Virus record (IMG/VR): IMGVR_UViG_3300050343_000281
Span: 1-64,000 of that record
Origin: a virus
Strand: one strand, 5' to 3'
Length of the DNA: 64,000 bases
The position numbers and the translations under genes are program-made. Below the pieces are notes generated by a model. It did no database searches, was not told the origin of the DNA, and saw nothing but the letters and a program-made list of their open reading frames with translations. Positions 20,657 through 27,221 of this stretch are shown here, piece after piece (the first letter of the stretch is position 1; every line of letters begins with the position of its first letter).

Positions 20657-21661
20657 TTAAACCTCACTTAGATCATACTTACTAAATAATTTCATAACAC
20701 TCCCATATAGTTCTATTTGATCATTTGTATAGTCATTTTCTTTACCTATTTCTTTATAGTCTTTTAACCAATCTTTATAAGGTAATACTTTACATCCTAT
20801 CTTAAAATAATGTTCGTTATCGTAATAAAAATACACTAATAAATCTTTTTCCCCATTAAAAGACATTATACCTTTTGCCTCATTTAAGTTTGCTCCACGT
20901 AATTCTGCCTCACCTAAGTTTACTCCACTAAAGTCTGCCCAACGTAAGTCTGCCTTACGTAAGTTTGCTCCACCTAAGTTTGTCCCACTTAAGTTTGCCT
21001 CACGTAAGTCTGCTCCACTAAAGTTTGCCTCATTTAAGTCTGCTCCACTAAAGTTTGCCCCATACAAGTCTACCCCACCTAAGTCTGCCTTACGTAAGTT
21101 TGCCCCACGTAAGTCTGCCTTACGTAAGCTTGCCCCACCTAAGTTTGCTCCACCTAAGTTTGCCCCACGTAAGTTTGCCCCACTTAAGTTTGCTCCACTT
21201 AAGTCTGCCTTACGTAAGTTTGCCTTACCTAAGTATGCCTCATACAAGTTTGCCCCACGTAAGTCTGCCTTACGTAAGCTTGCCCCACCTAAGTTTGCCC
21301 AACGTAAGTTTGCTCCACCTAAGTTTGCCCCACGTAAGTTTGCCCCACCTAAGTTTGTTTTATTTAAGTTTGCCTTACCTAAGTATGCCTCATACAAGTT
21401 TGCCCCACTTAAGTTTACTCCACTTAAGTTTGCCCAAAACAAGTTTGTCCCACTTAAGTTTGCTCCACGTAAGTTTGCCCCATACAAGTTTGCTTCACGT
21501 AAGTTTGCCCCACTTAAGTTTGCTCCACTTAAGTCTGCCTTAAGTAAGTTTGCTCCACGTAAGTTTGCTCCACTTAAGTCTGCCTTACGTAAGTTTGCTC
21601 CACGTAAGTTTGCCTCACGTAAGTATGCTTTAGGTTCTATTTTATAATTATATACTATCAT
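20657..21661 (-). CDS. Pentapeptide repeat protein
   Basis: About 50 A(N/D)Lxx repeats and a C-terminal FKIGC domain. Confidence 0.93.
   Translation of the reverse strand: MIVYNYKIEPKAYLREANLRGANLRKADLSGANLRGANLLKADLSGANLSGANLREANLYGANLRGANLSGTNLFWANLSGVNLSGANLYEAYLGKANLNKTNLGGANLRGANLGGANLRWANLGGASLRKADLRGANLYEAYLGKANLRKADLSGANLSGANLRGANLGGANLGGASLRKADLRGANLRKADLGGVDLYGANFSGADLNEANFSGADLREANLSGTNLGGANLRKADLRWADFSGVNLGEAELRGANLNEAKGIMSFNGEKDLLVYFYYDNEHYFKIGCKVLPYKDWLKDYKEIGKENDYTNDQIELYGSVMKLFSKYDLSEV
20875..21630 (-). repeat. 15-bp tandem coding repeat (pentapeptide units)
   Basis: Repeated aagtttgc(c/t)ccac(g/t/c)t units. Confidence 0.9.
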
Positions 21662-22315: not shown

Positions 22316-22705
22316 TTAAATAGTATAGTATAAATCATTTAACTTTGTATAATTATTTTTACTCTTTGCTGTTTTTTCATCAACTCTTTGTAATTTACCT
22401 AGCTTTTGCTCTTTTCCATCTGAGTAAATCAACCAACTTAAACCATTACTATCTTGATGTAAAATAGACTCTTGTTTGAAGTTTAAGAAAGCAAATGACT
22501 TTAAAGCCTCTAATTCTACATTATCCCTTACCACAACTACAAAACTATTTTCTAAATTACCTTGATAAAATCCTTGAGATTTTCCATAATGAAAATTACA
22601 CTCAGCAAGACATTTTTCTAAATTAGAGGTTCTTCTTTTATTCTCTTCTGAAGTGTTATTTTCTAATTCAGCCGATAAAATTACAATCCTTGACATTATT
22701 CTCAT
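22316..22705 (-). CDS. S-adenosylmethionine lyase/hydrolase-like protein (T3 SAMase family)
   Basis: VILSAE..N..R; GFYQG..ENSFVV; FKQESIL resemble recalled T3 SAMase motifs; early location. Confidence 0.7.
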   Translation of the reverse strand: MRIMSRIVILSAELENNTSEENKRRTSNLEKCLAECNFHYGKSQGFYQGNLENSFVVVVRDNVELEALKSFAFLNFKQESILHQDSNGLSWLIYSDGKEQKLGKLQRVDEKTAKSKNNYTKLNDLYYTI

Positions 22706-22854: not shown

Positions 22855-23070
22855 TTACAAGCCCCTATGATTATCTAAAATATTTAGTAACTTAATATTA
22901 ATGTCATAAACTTTTTGATCTAATTCTTTTACTTCATTACTATCGTTTCCCCACATAATATTATAAACTTCTATCTTTTTTAATAAAATATTTAACTCTT
23001 TGTATAACATCAAATAAGTACTCTTTGTAAAAGCGTCCATTGATTCTGTAATTTTTGTTTGATTGTTCAT
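22855..23070 (-). CDS. Hypothetical early protein
   Basis: Downstream of a promoter, with RBS. Confidence 0.55.
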   Translation of the reverse strand: MNNQTKITESMDAFTKSTYLMLYKELNILLKKIEVYNIMWGNDSNEVKELDQKVYDINIKLLNILDNHRGL

Positions 23071-23103
23071 ACGGTCCCTCTTTTGTTTATTTCCTTAATA
23101 TTA

Positions 23104-23132
23104 ATTATAGTGTATAACGCAATGCAATGCAA
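23104..23132 (-). promoter_or_regulatory. Sigma70-type early promoter
   Basis: TTGCAT-17-TATAAT. Confidence 0.7.
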
Positions 23133-23224
23133 CAAAAAAATAACATAGTGTGTAAAAAAATGTAATATTGTAATGATTTCAATAAAAGAGTAACAATTCC
23201 GTAACTTATCCGTAAGTAATTAAA

Positions 23225-23237
23225 TTTAACAACTATA
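23225..23237 (+). promoter_or_regulatory. Putative phage late promoter motif
   Basis: TTTAACAACTATA, identical to the motif before structural genes. Confidence 0.7.
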
Positions 23238-23239
23238 TA

Positions 23240-23610
23240 TATATAAGACTAAGACCGTAAAAAAATGCCTTAAGATGTACATGCAAGAGGCGACTAGGAT
23301 AGCCCCACTAACTTAGGTTAGTATATCACTACAAGTCGAGGGATTAAGTTTGTAGCGGAACGCTTAGTTTAGTATAAAGAGTAAGTACACGCTCTAAAAT
23401 GCGACCAATCAGAGCTTGATAGCTAAAGCCTTAACCGAAAGTACAAATAAAGTTAAGCGCATAACATAACCAAACTAGAGTTTTTCGGACTACTAGTAAA
23501 GTATTGTTATGCCTTGAAACGTAGCTTTATAAAGATATAGCCCCTTATCCTTGGAGCTATTTAGAAGTGTATAATGTTGCATTGAACAATGCTTGTTAAA
23601 TCGGTGGGAC
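23240..23610 (+). ncRNA. Candidate large structured non-coding RNA
   Basis: Gap with no ORF of 60 aa or more, at least 11 nested helices, downstream of the late motif; G-U pairs favour the + strand. Confidence 0.65.
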
Positions 23611-23653
23611 CATTGAAATGTATTCTATTATATCCGTATAAGTGTTAAATGTA

Positions 23654-23845
23654 TTATCTTGTTTTGATAGTCTCAATTAAAGATAGTATTAGTTTATAAT
23701 TAGTTGAATTTTTATACCAAATCACTCTATCCATTACCTCATCTTCCAAATAACTCTCCAATATAAACTCACTATCAGTACAATATAAGCTATAATCATA
23801 CTGTACATTCCTACAATCTCCAGTAAAGTCCTCTAATAGTTGCAT
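23654..23845 (-). CDS. Hypothetical early protein
   Basis: RBS GGGAGA, downstream of a promoter. Confidence 0.55.
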   Translation of the reverse strand: MQLLEDFTGDCRNVQYDYSLYCTDSEFILESYLEDEVMDRVIWYKNSTNYKLILSLIETIKTR

Positions 23846-23882
23846 GATATCTCCCTTGTGCTATGTGTCATTTTCTATATAA

Positions 23883-23911
23883 ATTATATCTTATCTAAAA
23901 TATCCTGTCAA
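23883..23911 (-). promoter_or_regulatory. Consensus sigma70 early promoter
   Basis: TTGACA-17-TATAAT, perfect match. Confidence 0.88.
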
Positions 23912-23963
23912 GTACTTTTCTAAAAAATGTTCCATCCATAGAACTAAGGAGAAGGTATTGTAT

Positions 23964-24155
23964 TTAGTATAAAGAACCAGTTAACTCTATGGTTCCGACT
24001 AAAAACTCTAAATTATTGTAGTCGTCTAATACGTTACATATGTCTTTATTATTTAAAATCCAAGTATTGTTATCAGTTTCTATATAGCCCTTGTTCTTTA
24101 TTGAATCATATACAAATCTATATTTATTACTGTCATCATTAATTACTGTTAACAT
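23964..24155 (-). CDS. Hypothetical early protein
   Basis: Short ORF with RBS. Confidence 0.55.
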   Translation of the reverse strand: MLTVINDDSNKYRFVYDSIKNKGYIETDNNTWILNNKDICNVLDDYNNLEFLVGTIELTGSLY

Positions 24156-24156
24156 A

Positions 24157-24339
24157 TTACTCTCCCTTTAACCAAGTTAGGTGTTTTACTATAGTACTTG
24201 TAATATTTAGATTACTCTTGTTGCATAACTGTGACTCTTTTTTACTTAGTAATACTGAGTTACCAATCAATGTATTAGTTATAATGCCGCCATCACCATT
24301 GTACTTGTAGTGGTAGTCTCCAATAAATACTGATATCAT
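24157..24339 (-). CDS. Hypothetical early protein
   Basis: Short ORF with RBS. Confidence 0.55.
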   Translation of the reverse strand: MISVFIGDYHYKYNGDGGIITNTLIGNSVLLSKKESQLCNKSNLNITSTIVKHLTWLKGE

Positions 24340-24378
24340 ATGTCCCTCTCTTTGTGCTACGTGTCATTTCCTAATACT

Positions 24379-24406
24379 AGTATACCACACTTACAACTCC
24401 TGTCAA
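24379..24406 (-). promoter_or_regulatory. Sigma70-type early promoter (extended -10)
   Basis: TTGACA-16-TATACT with TG before the -10. Confidence 0.75.
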
Positions 24407-24513
24407 GGGGAAAGTACACTATATTAAAATAAAATTCAGTATTACAATGATGACAGATAATTAGTTACTTTATATATTCTAGTCTATATAATGTAATATT
24501 GGAGAGTGATGTA

Positions 24514-24660
24514 TGCAAGGATGGTACCAAGTATGTGGTAAGTATTTTGCTAATGCAAGAATCGTGCCCACCAATATGGCACAGTATTTGCAGGGGGGAA
24601 TGCTTGGCATAGTAATTGCTAATGCAAGAGCGATACCAGAAAGTTGGCATGGGGATTGTA
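24514..24660. promoter_or_regulatory. Array of seven sigma54 (RpoN) -24/-12 boxes
   Basis: Matches to TGGCAC-N5-TTGCW at 24514(-), 24536(+), 24554(-), 24577(+), 24605(+), 24623(-), 24645(+). Confidence 0.8.
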
Positions 24661-25225
24661 GGGGGGGTGGGTGGTTCTAGCTGTGTACTGTTGGTTACGT
24701 ATAGGGCTGAGAGTGCGTAGGTACTAAATATATTTATTACACGTAATATAACCTCTATACTACCCTATTTACCATTTACTTTACTCCATTTAATTGATCT
24801 ATTATATACTTACATAATAATACAGGTAATACTAAAGGAGTTGATATAATTATAACAACTGCTGTTATGCCCAAAAAAAAACTCATTAATACAAAAACCA
24901 ATGCACTTTCTGTTATATTCATAAATCCTCTAAATAATCTTTAATTATTTCTATTCTAAACTGTGGAGCATATGGTTTATTCTGATCAAAGCTTTTCTCA
25001 AGATCTGCCAAATATAAGTATATATCATCAGAGACTAATCTATCAACATAAGAATCATCAATTCCAATAAGCCATATTCTAATATATTTCAATACTGCTC
25101 CTATTTATTACACTTAATTTCGACAACCTCTTAAATTAGCTTTATTTGCGTTTTTTAGATAAGACATATAAAGTATAGGGTTAGGGTGTTTAGAGAATTT
25201 AAACGGCAAATTAAGGGCTAATTTG

Positions 25226-25435
25226 CTAGTCTTTTCCTTCCATGTCGCATCTAAGAATTGCATAGTCTATTTTTAGACGTAACATTTCAAGTTCAGTGAC
25301 TGTTTCTTCATATTCTTCTATAAGTCTATTTAACTCCTGATCTGTTTTTGGAAGCTCTTCCCAGCCAGGATATTGTTTTTCTGAGTAGGCGAAATTATAT
25401 CGAGTCATTTCGTTGATTAATAATAGCTTTTTCAT
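25226..25435 (-). CDS. Hypothetical protein, paralog of 25436..25651
   Basis: Shared YNF..SE..Y.GW.ELP...LN....YE. Confidence 0.65.
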   Translation of the reverse strand: MKKLLLINEMTRYNFAYSEKQYPGWEELPKTDQELNRLIEEYEETVTELEMLRLKIDYAILRCDMEGKD

Positions 25436-25651
25436 TTAAAAACTTTCCTTTTTATCACTTTCTAGTCTTTCTAGTTCTCTTTCAAAAAGGATTTGTAAAG
25501 CTTTTAATTCTCTTCTAATGTCTTCATAATCTTGTAATATGTTATTTAATCTTGGTGAATATGGTAATTCTTTCCACCCTACGTATATTTCTTCGGATTC
25601 TGTAAAATTATACACCAATTCATTGGTAATACACATTTGTAGTAATTTCAT
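25436..25651 (-). CDS. Hypothetical protein, paralog of 25226..25435
   Basis: Shared YNF..SE..Y.GW.ELP...LN....YE. Confidence 0.65.
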   Translation of the reverse strand: MKLLQMCITNELVYNFTESEEIYVGWKELPYSPRLNNILQDYEDIRRELKALQILFERELERLESDKKESF

Positions 25652-25675
25652 GCTCTATTCTCCTTCCTTTATAAA

Positions 25676-25686
25676 TATAGTTGTTA
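25676..25686 (-). promoter_or_regulatory. Putative late promoter motif, minus-strand copy
   Basis: TAACAACTATA 25 nt upstream of the ORF starting at 25651. Confidence 0.55.
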
Positions 25687-25716
25687 TTTTAGAAGGATAA
25701 AAAGTAATACATTTAC

Positions 25717-25944
25717 TTAAATTTTATAGGATTTATAGTCGTTTTTCCAGTTTTCTATGTCTTCATACGTTCTTAAAGCATCATAAGATTCAACCCATCT
25801 TACATCTCCTGGATCGTCTACCCAATAAAATCTATTATCATGAGCTTTAATACAGAAAAAACCAGCATCTGTTATTTTAATCAACTCTCCAGACATTAAT
25901 TTGTTTTCAAATCGGTGCAAAAACACTACGTATATCTTTTCCAA
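25717..25944 (-). CDS. Hypothetical protein
   Basis: ORF with RBS. Confidence 0.55.
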   Translation of the reverse strand: MEKIYVVFLHRFENKLMSGELIKITDAGFFCIKAHDNRFYWVDDPGDVRWVESYDALRTYEDIENWKNDYKSYKI

Positions 25945-25952
25945 GACAACTC

Positions 25953-26138
25953 CTATAGTTTATTTTTAGAATATCTAGCTTTTTCTAGTAATTTATCAGT
26001 TATTACATCTATTCTGCGTATTATAAACTTCTTTTCTGACTCAGAAATGCTATAAGTACTTAGAATCCTAAGTAATTCTTCTCTTTCTTTCTTAATTTTT
26101 TCAATTTTTTCTTTATCTTCAAATGGGCTTAAACGCAC
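25953..26138 (-). CDS. Hypothetical protein
   Basis: Short ORF. Confidence 0.5.
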   Translation of the reverse strand: MRLSPFEDKEKIEKIKKEREELLRILSTYSISESEKKFIIRRIDVITDKLLEKARYSKNKL

Positions 26139-26415
26139 GAAAAGTTCCTTTATCTAAATCAAACTCTAATTCATATACCTGACCTTGAGAATTAAATAAA
26201 AATCCCTGATTACCATTACACATTGGACTAGTTTCTAGTTTTTTATCGAAAAAAAACCAGTAATTCATAGAATATGCACCAGAATGGTTCATTTTACTTG
26301 TAAAAAAGTATCCAAATTTGTCATATATTTTTAAATACACCGTAGCAGACAGGACTAGAGTATTAGTACACCCTGCATATAATCTTAAGTCCATGTCTAA
26401 AAAGTCCCGTCCCAA
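26119..26415 (-). CDS. Hypothetical protein
   Basis: Overlapping ORF chain. Confidence 0.5.
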   Translation of the reverse strand: MGRDFLDMDLRLYAGCTNTLVLSATVYLKIYDKFGYFFTSKMNHSGAYSMNYWFFFDKKLETSPMCNGNQGFLFNSQGQVYELEFDLDKGTFRAFKPI

Positions 26416-26651
26416 TCATCTCCATCATAATCAAAATCTAATTGAGAAATAAGCTCTTCCCAATCTTCTATGTTACCTAGTCTATATTCTTTAGTTCCAG
26501 AAGCAGAGGATTTTTTTAATACAACTATATCTTCTGCTGTTTTTCCACAAGGTTTGCAATCATACCATATATTAACTCCAAAAGAAGTTCTAGTCCACTT
26601 GGTATCGCAGATAGGGCATTTTTCAGTTTCTGGTTTAAATTGCTTTGTCAC
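26397..26651 (-). CDS. Zinc-ribbon protein
   Basis: CPIC...CKPC. Confidence 0.6.
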   Translation of the reverse strand: MTKQFKPETEKCPICDTKWTRTSFGVNIWYDCKPCGKTAEDIVVLKKSSASGTKEYRLGNIEDWEELISQLDFDYDGDDWDGTF

Positions 26652-26838
26652 TTTCTAAGATCTCCTTTCTCTTGCGAATAGACCACACTACATGTGTTCT
26701 ATTAACAGTAGAACATGCCATTCCTAATTTTACCTGGGTTTCTGGTTTTAGTAAAGAAAAATCTGTTTCACAAGGTTTTTTTTCTTGCTTTACAGGCTGC
26801 GGACTGCTAAAAAACAATGCTATTAGTAATTCTTTCAT
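26635..26838 (-). CDS. Hypothetical protein
   Basis: Short ORF. Confidence 0.5.
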   Translation of the reverse strand: MKELLIALFFSSPQPVKQEKKPCETDFSLLKPETQVKLGMACSTVNRTHVVWSIRKRKEILESDKAI

Positions 26839-26981
26839 GTTATTACACCTTTTCGGGAGATCGTATTTTTGTGAAACAAAAAACGAAAGGGCTTTCCACC
26901 CTTATTTTAATATATCTGTCACTTTTTGTACTTTTTGTTATATTTTTCATATAAAATAGCCCATCTGTCACTAAAATTATA

Positions 26982-27221
26982 TTAGTCCTTATCCGTCATA
27001 TCTTTGTAATCTTCGTCCGACACTATAATAGCTGCATTGTACTGAAGGTAGATTCCAAAAAAGTATAAAAATATATTTAGAAAAAATATCAATACTTGTA
27101 GAGGATATAAAGAAGATATTATAGCTATTTTAAAAGCACTTAATCTTTCTGGATAATTATATATTCTAAAAGTAGTCAGTCCTAGATATATAGAAAGATA
27201 TAATATTATTAAAAGTTCCAT
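26982..27221 (-). CDS. Two-TM membrane protein
   Basis: Two hydrophobic helices. Confidence 0.55.
   Translation of the reverse strand: MELLIILYLSIYLGLTTFRIYNYPERLSAFKIAIISSLYPLQVLIFFLNIFLYFFGIYLQYNAAIIVSDEDYKDMTDKD

Follow-up and report, generated by a model that had tools for sequence, protein, structure and literature searches.

GOLLD (RF01998) and ROOL (RF03087) are large ornate RNAs that are often carried by phages or prophages (Kretsch et al. 2025, PMC12286853). Here, we analyze a locus in an uncultured phage that appears to encode another phage-borne RNA: positions ~23244-23598, on the plus strand, of the first 64 kb (the window, with a GC content of ~27%) of the 74.4-kb IMG/VR virus record IMGVR_UViG_3300050343_000281. 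This stretch would be a stand-alone gene for a folded non-coding RNA of ~350 nucleotides (nt), with relatives of 300-360 nt. Like GOLLD and ROOL, it presents itself as a non-coding RNA gene of a phage that stands alone, has several domains supported by covariation, and lacks both an adjacent partner gene and a known function; it also has conserved, A-rich unpaired stretches similar in kind to those through which GOLLD and ROOL form A-minor contacts. Unlike them, it gives no match to their covariance models, is about half their size, does not sit beside tRNA genes (there are none in the window), and seems to be driven by the late promoter motif of the phage itself.

Two other kinds of phage RNA bear comparison. 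The pRNA of phi29 measures ~120-174 nt and belongs to small protein-primed phages. Our RNA, for which a packaging role was among the possibilities listed in an earlier reading of the window, resembles it in being phage-encoded and structured and in that it could be present during virion assembly, and differs in having no sequence or model similarity to it; moreover, nothing calls for an RNA in the packaging motor of this phage, because it has a conventional large terminase and a portal. The processive antitermination RNAs, such as HK022 put and EAR, are cis-acting elements of 70-120 nt, built of two or three stems, whose target is the polymerase that transcribes them. As in put and EAR, the RNA lies directly behind a promoter, on a strand with no nearby open reading frame (ORF), and hairpins come next; unlike them, it would be a two-domain RNA of ~300-360 nt, three to four times larger, and it has no Rfam match.

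The flanking proteins, the terminase and two DNA patterns served as queries, and these searches retrieved homologues from contigs of uncultured phages and metagenomes. Including the window, ten distinct homologous sequences were found on such contigs, and they form three subfamilies: A (the window, L003, G001, which equals L015, L010 and L025, and L026), B (L036, which equals L041, L037, L038 and L043), and C (L032 and L042), the last with a long insertion in hairpin P3. The window stretch itself is nearly complete in two seawater metagenome runs, one of which is possibly its own source sample. At all loci with a long enough contig, the RNA sits 5-7 kb upstream of the terminase gene and on the same strand as it, among small ORFs of the opposite strand. 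Between the window and L003 the RNA is 91.8% identical (93.7% in domain 1), compared with 79-88% for neighboring genes, and between the window and G001 it is the sole stretch that can be aligned as DNA. The two ORFs that flank the RNA in the window have no tblastn match in G001, and the immediate neighbors differ between loci. The terminase of the phage is 31.7% identical to a Silvanigrella (Bdellovibrionota) phage terminase and ~25% identical to those of T5-like phages; by this measure, the phage is without a close cultured relative. The phages that carry the RNA form an uncultured marine lineage of tailed phages of ~75-85 kb. Since the terminase has 1,299 relatives at E <= 1e-60, the RNA family is probably much larger than ten sequences.

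The case for a structured RNA is built on the comparison of these homologues. A covariance model built from subfamily A alone (R1) detects the B and C copies full-length, with E-values of 6e-6 to 4e-4. Conversely, a model built from subfamily B alone (R2) detects all four A copies directly 3' of domain 1 (E 4e-12 to 7e-5), placing the copy of the window at 23399-23516 (E 7e-5), so that the R1 and R2 matches adjoin and stand in the correct order. In a nine-sequence model alignment of domain 1, 92.7% of the cells are paired, compared with 29-45% after sliding the 3' partners by 1-3 columns; changes on both sides are seen in 22 of the 31 pairs, and none of 500 shuffles reaches any of the five observed measures. 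For domain 2 (eight sequences, 28 pairs) the corresponding figures are 93.4% versus 27-48%, with changes on both sides in 11 pairs, including six of the seven pairs of helix b, and again 0/500 shuffles as high. The earlier reading of the window, made from its letters alone (hereafter the original prediction), had proposed a structured plus-strand RNA behind a late promoter motif and had named covariation among homologues as a test of it. This proposal is borne out by the ten homologues, in which the promoter motif is conserved and 33 of 59 covariation-backed pairs are changed on both sides, a level seen in 0 of 500 shuffles. Compensatory substitutions thus exceed the controls, which on comparative grounds marks the element as a conserved structured RNA.

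The same alignments indicate which strand is the RNA. In both domains together, G-U cells outnumber A-C cells by 38 to 5, a result that the fitting of the alignments on the plus strand favors somewhat, and this excess, together with the orientation of the promoter, identifies the plus strand as the RNA strand, as the original prediction had argued from its G-U pairs. The counts come from covariance-model alignments, which were used because alignments of the 8-10 sequences made with MAFFT alone misplaced helices and gave poor RNAalifold results. The covariation-supported model of the window lies 2.3 kcal/mol above its unconstrained minimum free energy (MFE) fold, and an examination of coding potential in the stretch revealed neither a frame nor a triplet pattern nor any residual similarity to proteins. 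Taken together, these observations leave us highly confident that the plus strand carries a real structured RNA gene.

The RNA would fold into two domains, a 5' junction closed by P1 and P2 and a 3' domain composed of hairpin a, helix b, and helix c around hairpin d, followed by a variable tail that ends in a hairpin (Table 1). When applied to the four subfamily-A sequences, RNAalifold gave 31 pairs in domain 1, of which 12 have compensatory changes. The extent of the drift is illustrated by P1, which reads CUAAG/CUUAG in the window, UGAGG/CCUCA in G001 and UAGGG/CCCUA in L032, and by P7, which reads CUACAA/UUGUAG, CAAGGU/ACCUUG and CUUGAG/CUCAAG in the window, G001 and L036, respectively. The loop of P7 differs between subfamilies, with the scaffold kept. 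Three unpaired words of domain 1 are invariant: GUWAAAAAA (23257-65), GACUAGG (23292-98) and GGAAC (23357-61). By eye, GACUAGG(AUA) can be matched in seven of eight sequences with a 3' loop or tail that contains UCC, a possible pseudoknot of only 3-6 bp.

Table 1. Features of the RNA gene and of its immediate surroundings, with positions counted from the first letter of the window.
Feature	Position	Strand	Description
Putative late promoter motif	23225-23237	+	TTTAACAACTATA; exact copy, directly before the RNA
Domain 1	23244-23370	+	Multi-helix junction; RNAalifold and covariance-model alignment
P1	23246-53/23363-70	+	AGACTAAG/CTTAGTTT
P2	23255-57/23356-58	+	
P3	23267-69/23289-91	+	
P5	23307-12/23317-22	+	
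P7	23329-34/23350-55	+	Conserved 15-nt loop 23335-49
Subfamily-A closing helix	23385-23390/23567-23572	+	GTACAC/GTGTAT; encloses domain 2
Domain 2 core	23391-23516	+	R2 match, covariation, single-sequence folds
Domain 2 linker	Within 23391-23516	+	CUCUAAAAUG
Hairpin a	23413-16/23421-24	+	(U)AGCU-N4-AGCU(A)
AAAGCC	23425-30	+	Invariant unpaired junction in subfamily B
Helix b	23431-35/23452-56	+	
Helix c	23459-66/23505-12	+	GCATAACA/TGTTATGC; encloses hairpin d
Hairpin d	23474-78/23493-97	+	
Local hairpin	23537-23560		ATAGCCCC/GGAGCTAT; inside the RNA in subfamily A; terminator-like with a T-rich tail on the minus strand, behind ORF 23654-23845
3' hairpin	23579-23598	+	GCATT-GAAC-AATGC, tail TTGTTA; probable 3' end of the RNA
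Sigma-70-type promoter	23883-23911	-	TTGACA-17-TATAAT; 12/12 consensus matches; drives ORF 23654-23845 towards the RNA gene

Domain 2 has an equal architecture in the single-sequence MFE folds of all eight A and B sequences, with the invariant word ACUAGUAAAG coming after hairpin d; in subfamily C, helices b and c and the word ACUAGUAA are recognizable in rearranged form. According to the original prediction, this domain is closed by TACAC/GTGTA. Such a helix is indeed kept in the window, L003, G001 and L026, as GTACAC/GTGTAT, and the word GAAGUGUA around GTGTAT is conserved in 4/4 subfamily-A sequences. However, all changes in this helix are one-sided and involve G-U pairs (G-U to G-C, C-G to U-G, A-U to G-U), with no double compensatory change among them, and the helix is absent from subfamilies B and C. 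At the position of the local hairpin 23537-23560, G001 and L026 have sequence-unrelated hairpins with a UCC-containing loop. Sequence conservation ends just past ...AUGCC, followed by a variable tail of 30-90 nt and then, in subfamilies A and B, by a sequence-unrelated hairpin, such as GCCTCA..TGAGGC followed by ATTTTTG in L043 or CCCGC..GCGGG in L037 and L038. A plus-strand U-tract after the terminal hairpin is clear in L043 and weak in L036, G001 and the window.

As for the remaining helices of the original prediction, AGACTAAG/CTTAGTTT, CTTAAC/GTTAAG, GCATAACA/TGTTATGC, ACTAG/CTAGT and the GCATT/AATGC hairpin are found where it had placed them and are kept in relatives, mostly by compensatory changes, and ACTAAC/GTTAGT is kept within subfamily A. 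GCCT/AGGC and CTACAAG/TTTGTAG are also kept in relatives in a shortened form, as GCC/GGC and CTACAA/TTGTAG. TAAAGC/GCTTTA can pair in the closest relatives only; in subfamily B, AAAGCC is an unpaired junction. GCTCT/AGAGC and ATAGC/GCTAT had to be abandoned because they are not conserved, and we find instead a hairpin at 23413-23424 and the subfamily-A hairpin at 23537-23560. The proposed long-range pair CCCAC/GTGGG is broken in the nearest relative, L003 (GTGAG), and lies beyond the 3' hairpin.

The motif in front of the RNA, TTTAACAACTATA, occurs in nine exact copies in the window, all of them plus-stranded. The late arm contains eight of these, which mostly precede the starts of late or structural genes by 20-60 nt, and the copy at 23225 is the sole one in the early arm. 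With up to two mismatches allowed, there are 27 matches, compared with 11 +/- 3 in shuffles. The RNA starts directly after TTTAACAACTA(T/A)A in 10 of 10 homologues. From its placement, we infer that TTTAACAACTATA is a late promoter, and the transcript probably starts ~6-8 nt 3' of the motif, near 23243-23245, where P1 begins. Because the motif is shared with the structural genes, the RNA is presumably made late, together with the virion proteins, and it would be transcribed from the strand opposite to that of its early neighbors. The motif and the hairpins together make it likely that the RNA is an independent late transcript.

Just 5' of this promoter motif is a tandem 11-bp repeat, TCCGTAAC-TTA-TCCGTAAG (23196-23216; TCCGTAA), which is kept in L003. 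The subfamily-B loci have the repeat word inverted at an equal distance (TTACGGAAAAnnTACG), and the other late promoters of the window are without it; the repeat may be a binding site for a regulator specific to the RNA gene. Subfamily B also has a second conserved non-coding element (L038:4437-4561(+), L037:234-358(+), L043:8171-8295(-) and L041:6975-7099(-)), which lies on the same strand, 50-180 nt upstream of the RNA and its late promoter. It consists of a sigma-70-like -10 box followed by interleaved helices, GTAGGC..GATGCG..GCCTAC CGCATC, in the layout of an H-type pseudoknot. The pairing is kept as GTAGC/GCTAC and GATGCA/TGCATC in L043 and as GAGCG/CGCTC in L037, and a T-run hairpin comes next. 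This element has no Rfam match, is absent from the window, and looks like a small early RNA or an attenuator before the large RNA.

The RNA lies in the early arm of the phage, where minus-strand genes occupy the window up to ~27.2 kb and encode a DNA polymerase, a DnaB-like helicase, a Sak annealing protein, a PD-(D/E)XK nuclease, a SAM lyase, a pentapeptide-repeat protein and many small ORFs. The plus-strand arm begins at 28.6 kb with the terminase, portal, major head protein and other large genes. A gap of 583 nt (23071-23653) separates the minus-strand ORFs 22855-23070 and 23654-23845. The original prediction had described a long gap without ORFs of at least 60 amino acids, with the motif on its plus strand. 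This description is accurate: the gap has no ORF of at least 30 amino acids, only minus-strand frames of 29 and 26 amino acids reaching its 3' end. Its GC content is 35-37%, compared with 25-28% around it, and its GC skew is positive, opposite to that of the surrounding minus-strand genes. In addition to the minus-strand promoter of Table 1, a near-perfect sigma-70 promoter, TTGACA-16-TATACT preceded by TG (24379-24406, minus strand), serves small early ORFs. It thus appears that the early genes rely on host-type promoters and the late genes on the TTTAACAACTATA motif. The minus-strand promoter at 23911-23883 and the terminator-like hairpin at 23560-23537 suggest that early transcription stops before the body of the RNA gene. 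The gene therefore resembles a unit of its own that is protected from early transcription, and not an antisense partner of an early message. In this sense, the original prediction was right to call the RNA antisense to the early arm in its orientation, but no gene is overlapped. A cis-antisense RNA was accordingly rejected as a candidate, since 23244-23598 lies wholly between the two flanking ORFs and overlaps only the 29- and 26-amino-acid chance ORFs in its 3' part.

We also rejected a riboswitch or mRNA leader, because at no locus does a plus-strand ORF of at least 45 amino acids with a counterpart elsewhere, or of at least 80 amino acids, start less than 780 nt from the start of the RNA. 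Beyond 780 nt, plus-strand frames are few at all loci and mostly overlap minus-strand genes. In the window, the next plus-strand promoter and gene are at ~27428, ~3.8 kb away, and the interval contains only short plus-strand frames, which overlap minus-strand genes. In subfamilies B and C, the 1-1.7 kb 3' of the RNA (L032:3250-4700; L042, L037 and L038) likewise have, on either strand, no ORF of at least 45 amino acids with a counterpart elsewhere and none of at least 80; these stretches may hold further non-coding elements or very small genes.

Searches for known families support the expectation of the original prediction that the RNA matches none. Rfam 15, in a scan that included GOLLD, ROOL, raiA, OLE, HEARO, RNase P, 6S, group I and II introns, riboswitches, small ribozymes and pRNA, gave no match in the whole window at gathering score. 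At E up to 10, the sole match in the region was a chance snoRNA of 19.7 bits, and Rfam found nothing on the RNA in four homologue loci. ARAGORN reported no tRNA or tmRNA gene in the window, and a blastn search with the gap as query found nothing similar among 50,697 GenBank phage records. The representative genomes of 185,579 prokaryote species contained no homologue, and the 13 pattern matches obtained there, like the pattern matches L034, L035, L039, L040 and L058-L060, are attributed to chance, as neither model matches at the pattern site; a few weak model matches on these loci (E 0.055 or worse) lie at other positions. Another rejected candidate, G002/L016, is merely a late promoter followed by a protein gene. 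The genome search with R1 missed the L032 copy, which cmsearch on the locus recovered. A search of the literature found no description of the RNA, which is not proof that none exists. By these searches, the RNA is a family new to Rfam 15, and it is at the level of the RNA family that we claim novelty.

How might such an RNA act? Across the homologues, the helices drift with their pairing kept, and the unpaired words GUWAAAAAA, GACUAGG, GGAAC, CUCUAAA, AAAGCC and ACUAGUAAAG are invariant, a combination that fits the pattern typical of RNAs that need a precise tertiary fold and a specific ligand. We propose that the RNA acts in trans, binding a protein partner late in infection, and that this partner could be a phage or host factor for which the RNA forms a scaffold or acts as a decoy. 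A trans-acting, protein-binding RNA is the most economical reading because there is no nearby ORF on the same strand and no overlapped gene; antisense pairing or a role as an mRNA leader is probably not its function. The scaffold or decoy mode, reached by exclusion and by analogy, is a tentative assignment that we would place somewhat short of even. For the explanation as a whole, that of a stand-alone late folded RNA gene acting through its fold by protein binding, we see slightly more reason to accept than to doubt it.

Several points weigh against this explanation. There is no RNA sequencing run on record for this DNA, and four DNA sequencing runs, which contained only short contig pieces of relatives, are uninformative on expression. 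No conserved neighboring protein gene across loci indicates a partner, and protein binding rests on analogy. The comparison draws on just ten distinct sequences from about three lineages, in which each compensatory change may have arisen just once, and the counts were taken from alignments that were fitted to R1 and R2 and lean towards the model structure, which is why the slid-partner controls matter. A U-run follows the terminal hairpin in some homologues only, and L037 and L038 have their T-run on the side of the minus strand; therefore, transcription could read through into the antisense of early genes. Finally, the folding energy, which the original prediction had proposed as a further test, is no better than that of shuffles, with z-scores of -1.28 (plus strand) and -1.30 (minus strand). 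The test has little power in a genome of 27% GC, and we consider its result outweighed by the comparative evidence. The support for the RNA is thus evolutionary and not thermodynamic.

Of the other explanations, one takes up this possible read-through and sees in the RNA the cis-acting 5' element of a long late antisense transcript that heads for the late operon and crosses, over ~3.8 kb, the early genes of the minus strand (23654-27221). The element would act by polymerase antitermination, in the way of HK022 put and EAR, or by transcript stabilization, and the adjacent early genes would be shut off late in infection. The position directly behind the promoter would suit such an element, as would the fact that, at every locus, 5-7 kb of almost exclusively opposite-strand genes separate the RNA from the terminase downstream, which is encoded on its strand. 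Additionally, several terminal hairpins are without a convincing plus-strand U-run, those of L037 and L038 being terminator-like for the minus strand only, and just one weak plus-strand terminator-like site exists from the RNA to the late operon. However, the conserved core spans 255-290 nt in two domains with many invariant junction nucleotides, compared with 70-120 nt for antitermination RNAs, and conservation halts directly past this core, leaving the tail variable. Moreover, L043 and L036 do have a hairpin and a U-tract on the plus strand, and the late operon has motif copies of its own, so that read-through is not needed for its expression; we regard this explanation as improbable. We are about equally reserved towards an RNA-only machine that works without a protein partner, either as a ribozyme or as an ornate RNA that assembles itself as ROOL, GOLLD and OLE do. 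The fold is rich in junctions and has invariant A-rich unpaired words (GUWAAAAAA, CUCUAAAUAAAAU, GAAAGUAAA and AGUAAAG) as raw material for A-minor contacts, and like GOLLD and ROOL it is carried by phages and has no conserved neighboring protein gene. Its length of 300-360 nt is, however, about half that of ROOL and GOLLD, and it matches no Rfam ribozyme or ornate RNA even at E up to 10. The invariant palindrome ACUAGU could in principle pair between molecules, but it is already paired in a local hairpin whose other strand varies with pairing kept; CTAG words are not unusually frequent in the RNA.

We give a slim chance to a trans-acting base-pairing regulator, whose conserved single-stranded words would pair with early phage or host mRNAs late in infection. 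Late timing would suit the shut-off of early or host messages, and several invariant unpaired words of 7-13 nt are available for pairing. Yet the complements of GACUAGGAUAGCC and of the P7 loop, the two most conserved GC-containing words, are no commoner in the 64-kb window than in shuffles, and the P7 loop varies between subfamilies while the scaffold is kept. The RNA is also out of keeping with bacterial base-pairing RNAs, which are usually smaller and far less structured. We find it hardly credible that the stretch is not an RNA gene at all and represents a DNA-level element (a replication origin, a packaging site or a protein-binding site) or a decayed protein gene. An ORF-free conserved stretch in the early region, with the 11-bp tandem repeat just 5' of it (23196-23216) and an unremarkable folding energy, might suggest as much. 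Against this, the tolerance of G-U over A-C (38 to 5) is sensible for one RNA strand only, 33 pairs change on both sides with pairing kept, every homologue has the promoter motif at its 5' end, and there is no frame, triplet pattern or residual protein similarity.

The surroundings of the RNA gene offer further observations. The neighboring early genes at 20657-21661 and 22316-22705 include those for the 334-amino-acid pentapeptide-repeat protein and the SAM lyase; the pentapeptide-repeat gene has a GC content of 0.44-0.49, compared with 0.27. Pentapeptide-repeat proteins and SAM lyases are kinds of proteins known from phage counter-defense, and with such neighbors the RNA gene lies in what resembles an anti-defense region of the early arm. 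Within the minus-strand arm, the plus strand is G-rich at 24500-24720 (GC content 0.47, GC skew +0.45). This stretch has two copies of the word GCTAATGCAAGA and a plus-strand ORF of 55 amino acids (24513-24680), preceded by GGAG 7 nt upstream, that overlaps a minus-strand ORF of 61 amino acids. Among the terminase homologues, those of P0012, P0042, P0053, P0056, P0073 and P0109 are 820-848 amino acids long, compared with the usual ~490. These long terminases carry a LAGLIDADG domain (PF14528), one of them with Hint/intein domains as well, which suggests intein insertions in some members of the phage lineage.

To our knowledge, large well-folded non-coding RNAs without known function are rare. 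The classes of this kind studied so far, among them RNase P, riboswitches, and the cage- or dimer-forming GOLLD, ROOL and OLE, each revealed unexpected properties of RNA. It is conceivable, and in our view rather doubtful, that the RNA described here is the core of a new late-stage phage function, an RNA-protein or RNA-only machine produced alongside the virion proteins, which might help in assembly or packaging as a cofactor, be packaged itself, or act as a decoy that disarms a host defense or nuclease. If so, its fold would constitute a new class of functional RNA and not a variant of a known one. The element is cleanly defined, by a fixed 5' promoter motif, two domains with 59 comparatively supported pairs, and invariant junction nucleotides, and its length of ~300-360 nt suits chemical probing and cryo-electron microscopy. 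The combination of a late-gene motif with an early, anti-defense-like location suggests that the RNA may have a role in late infection that is invisible to protein annotation.

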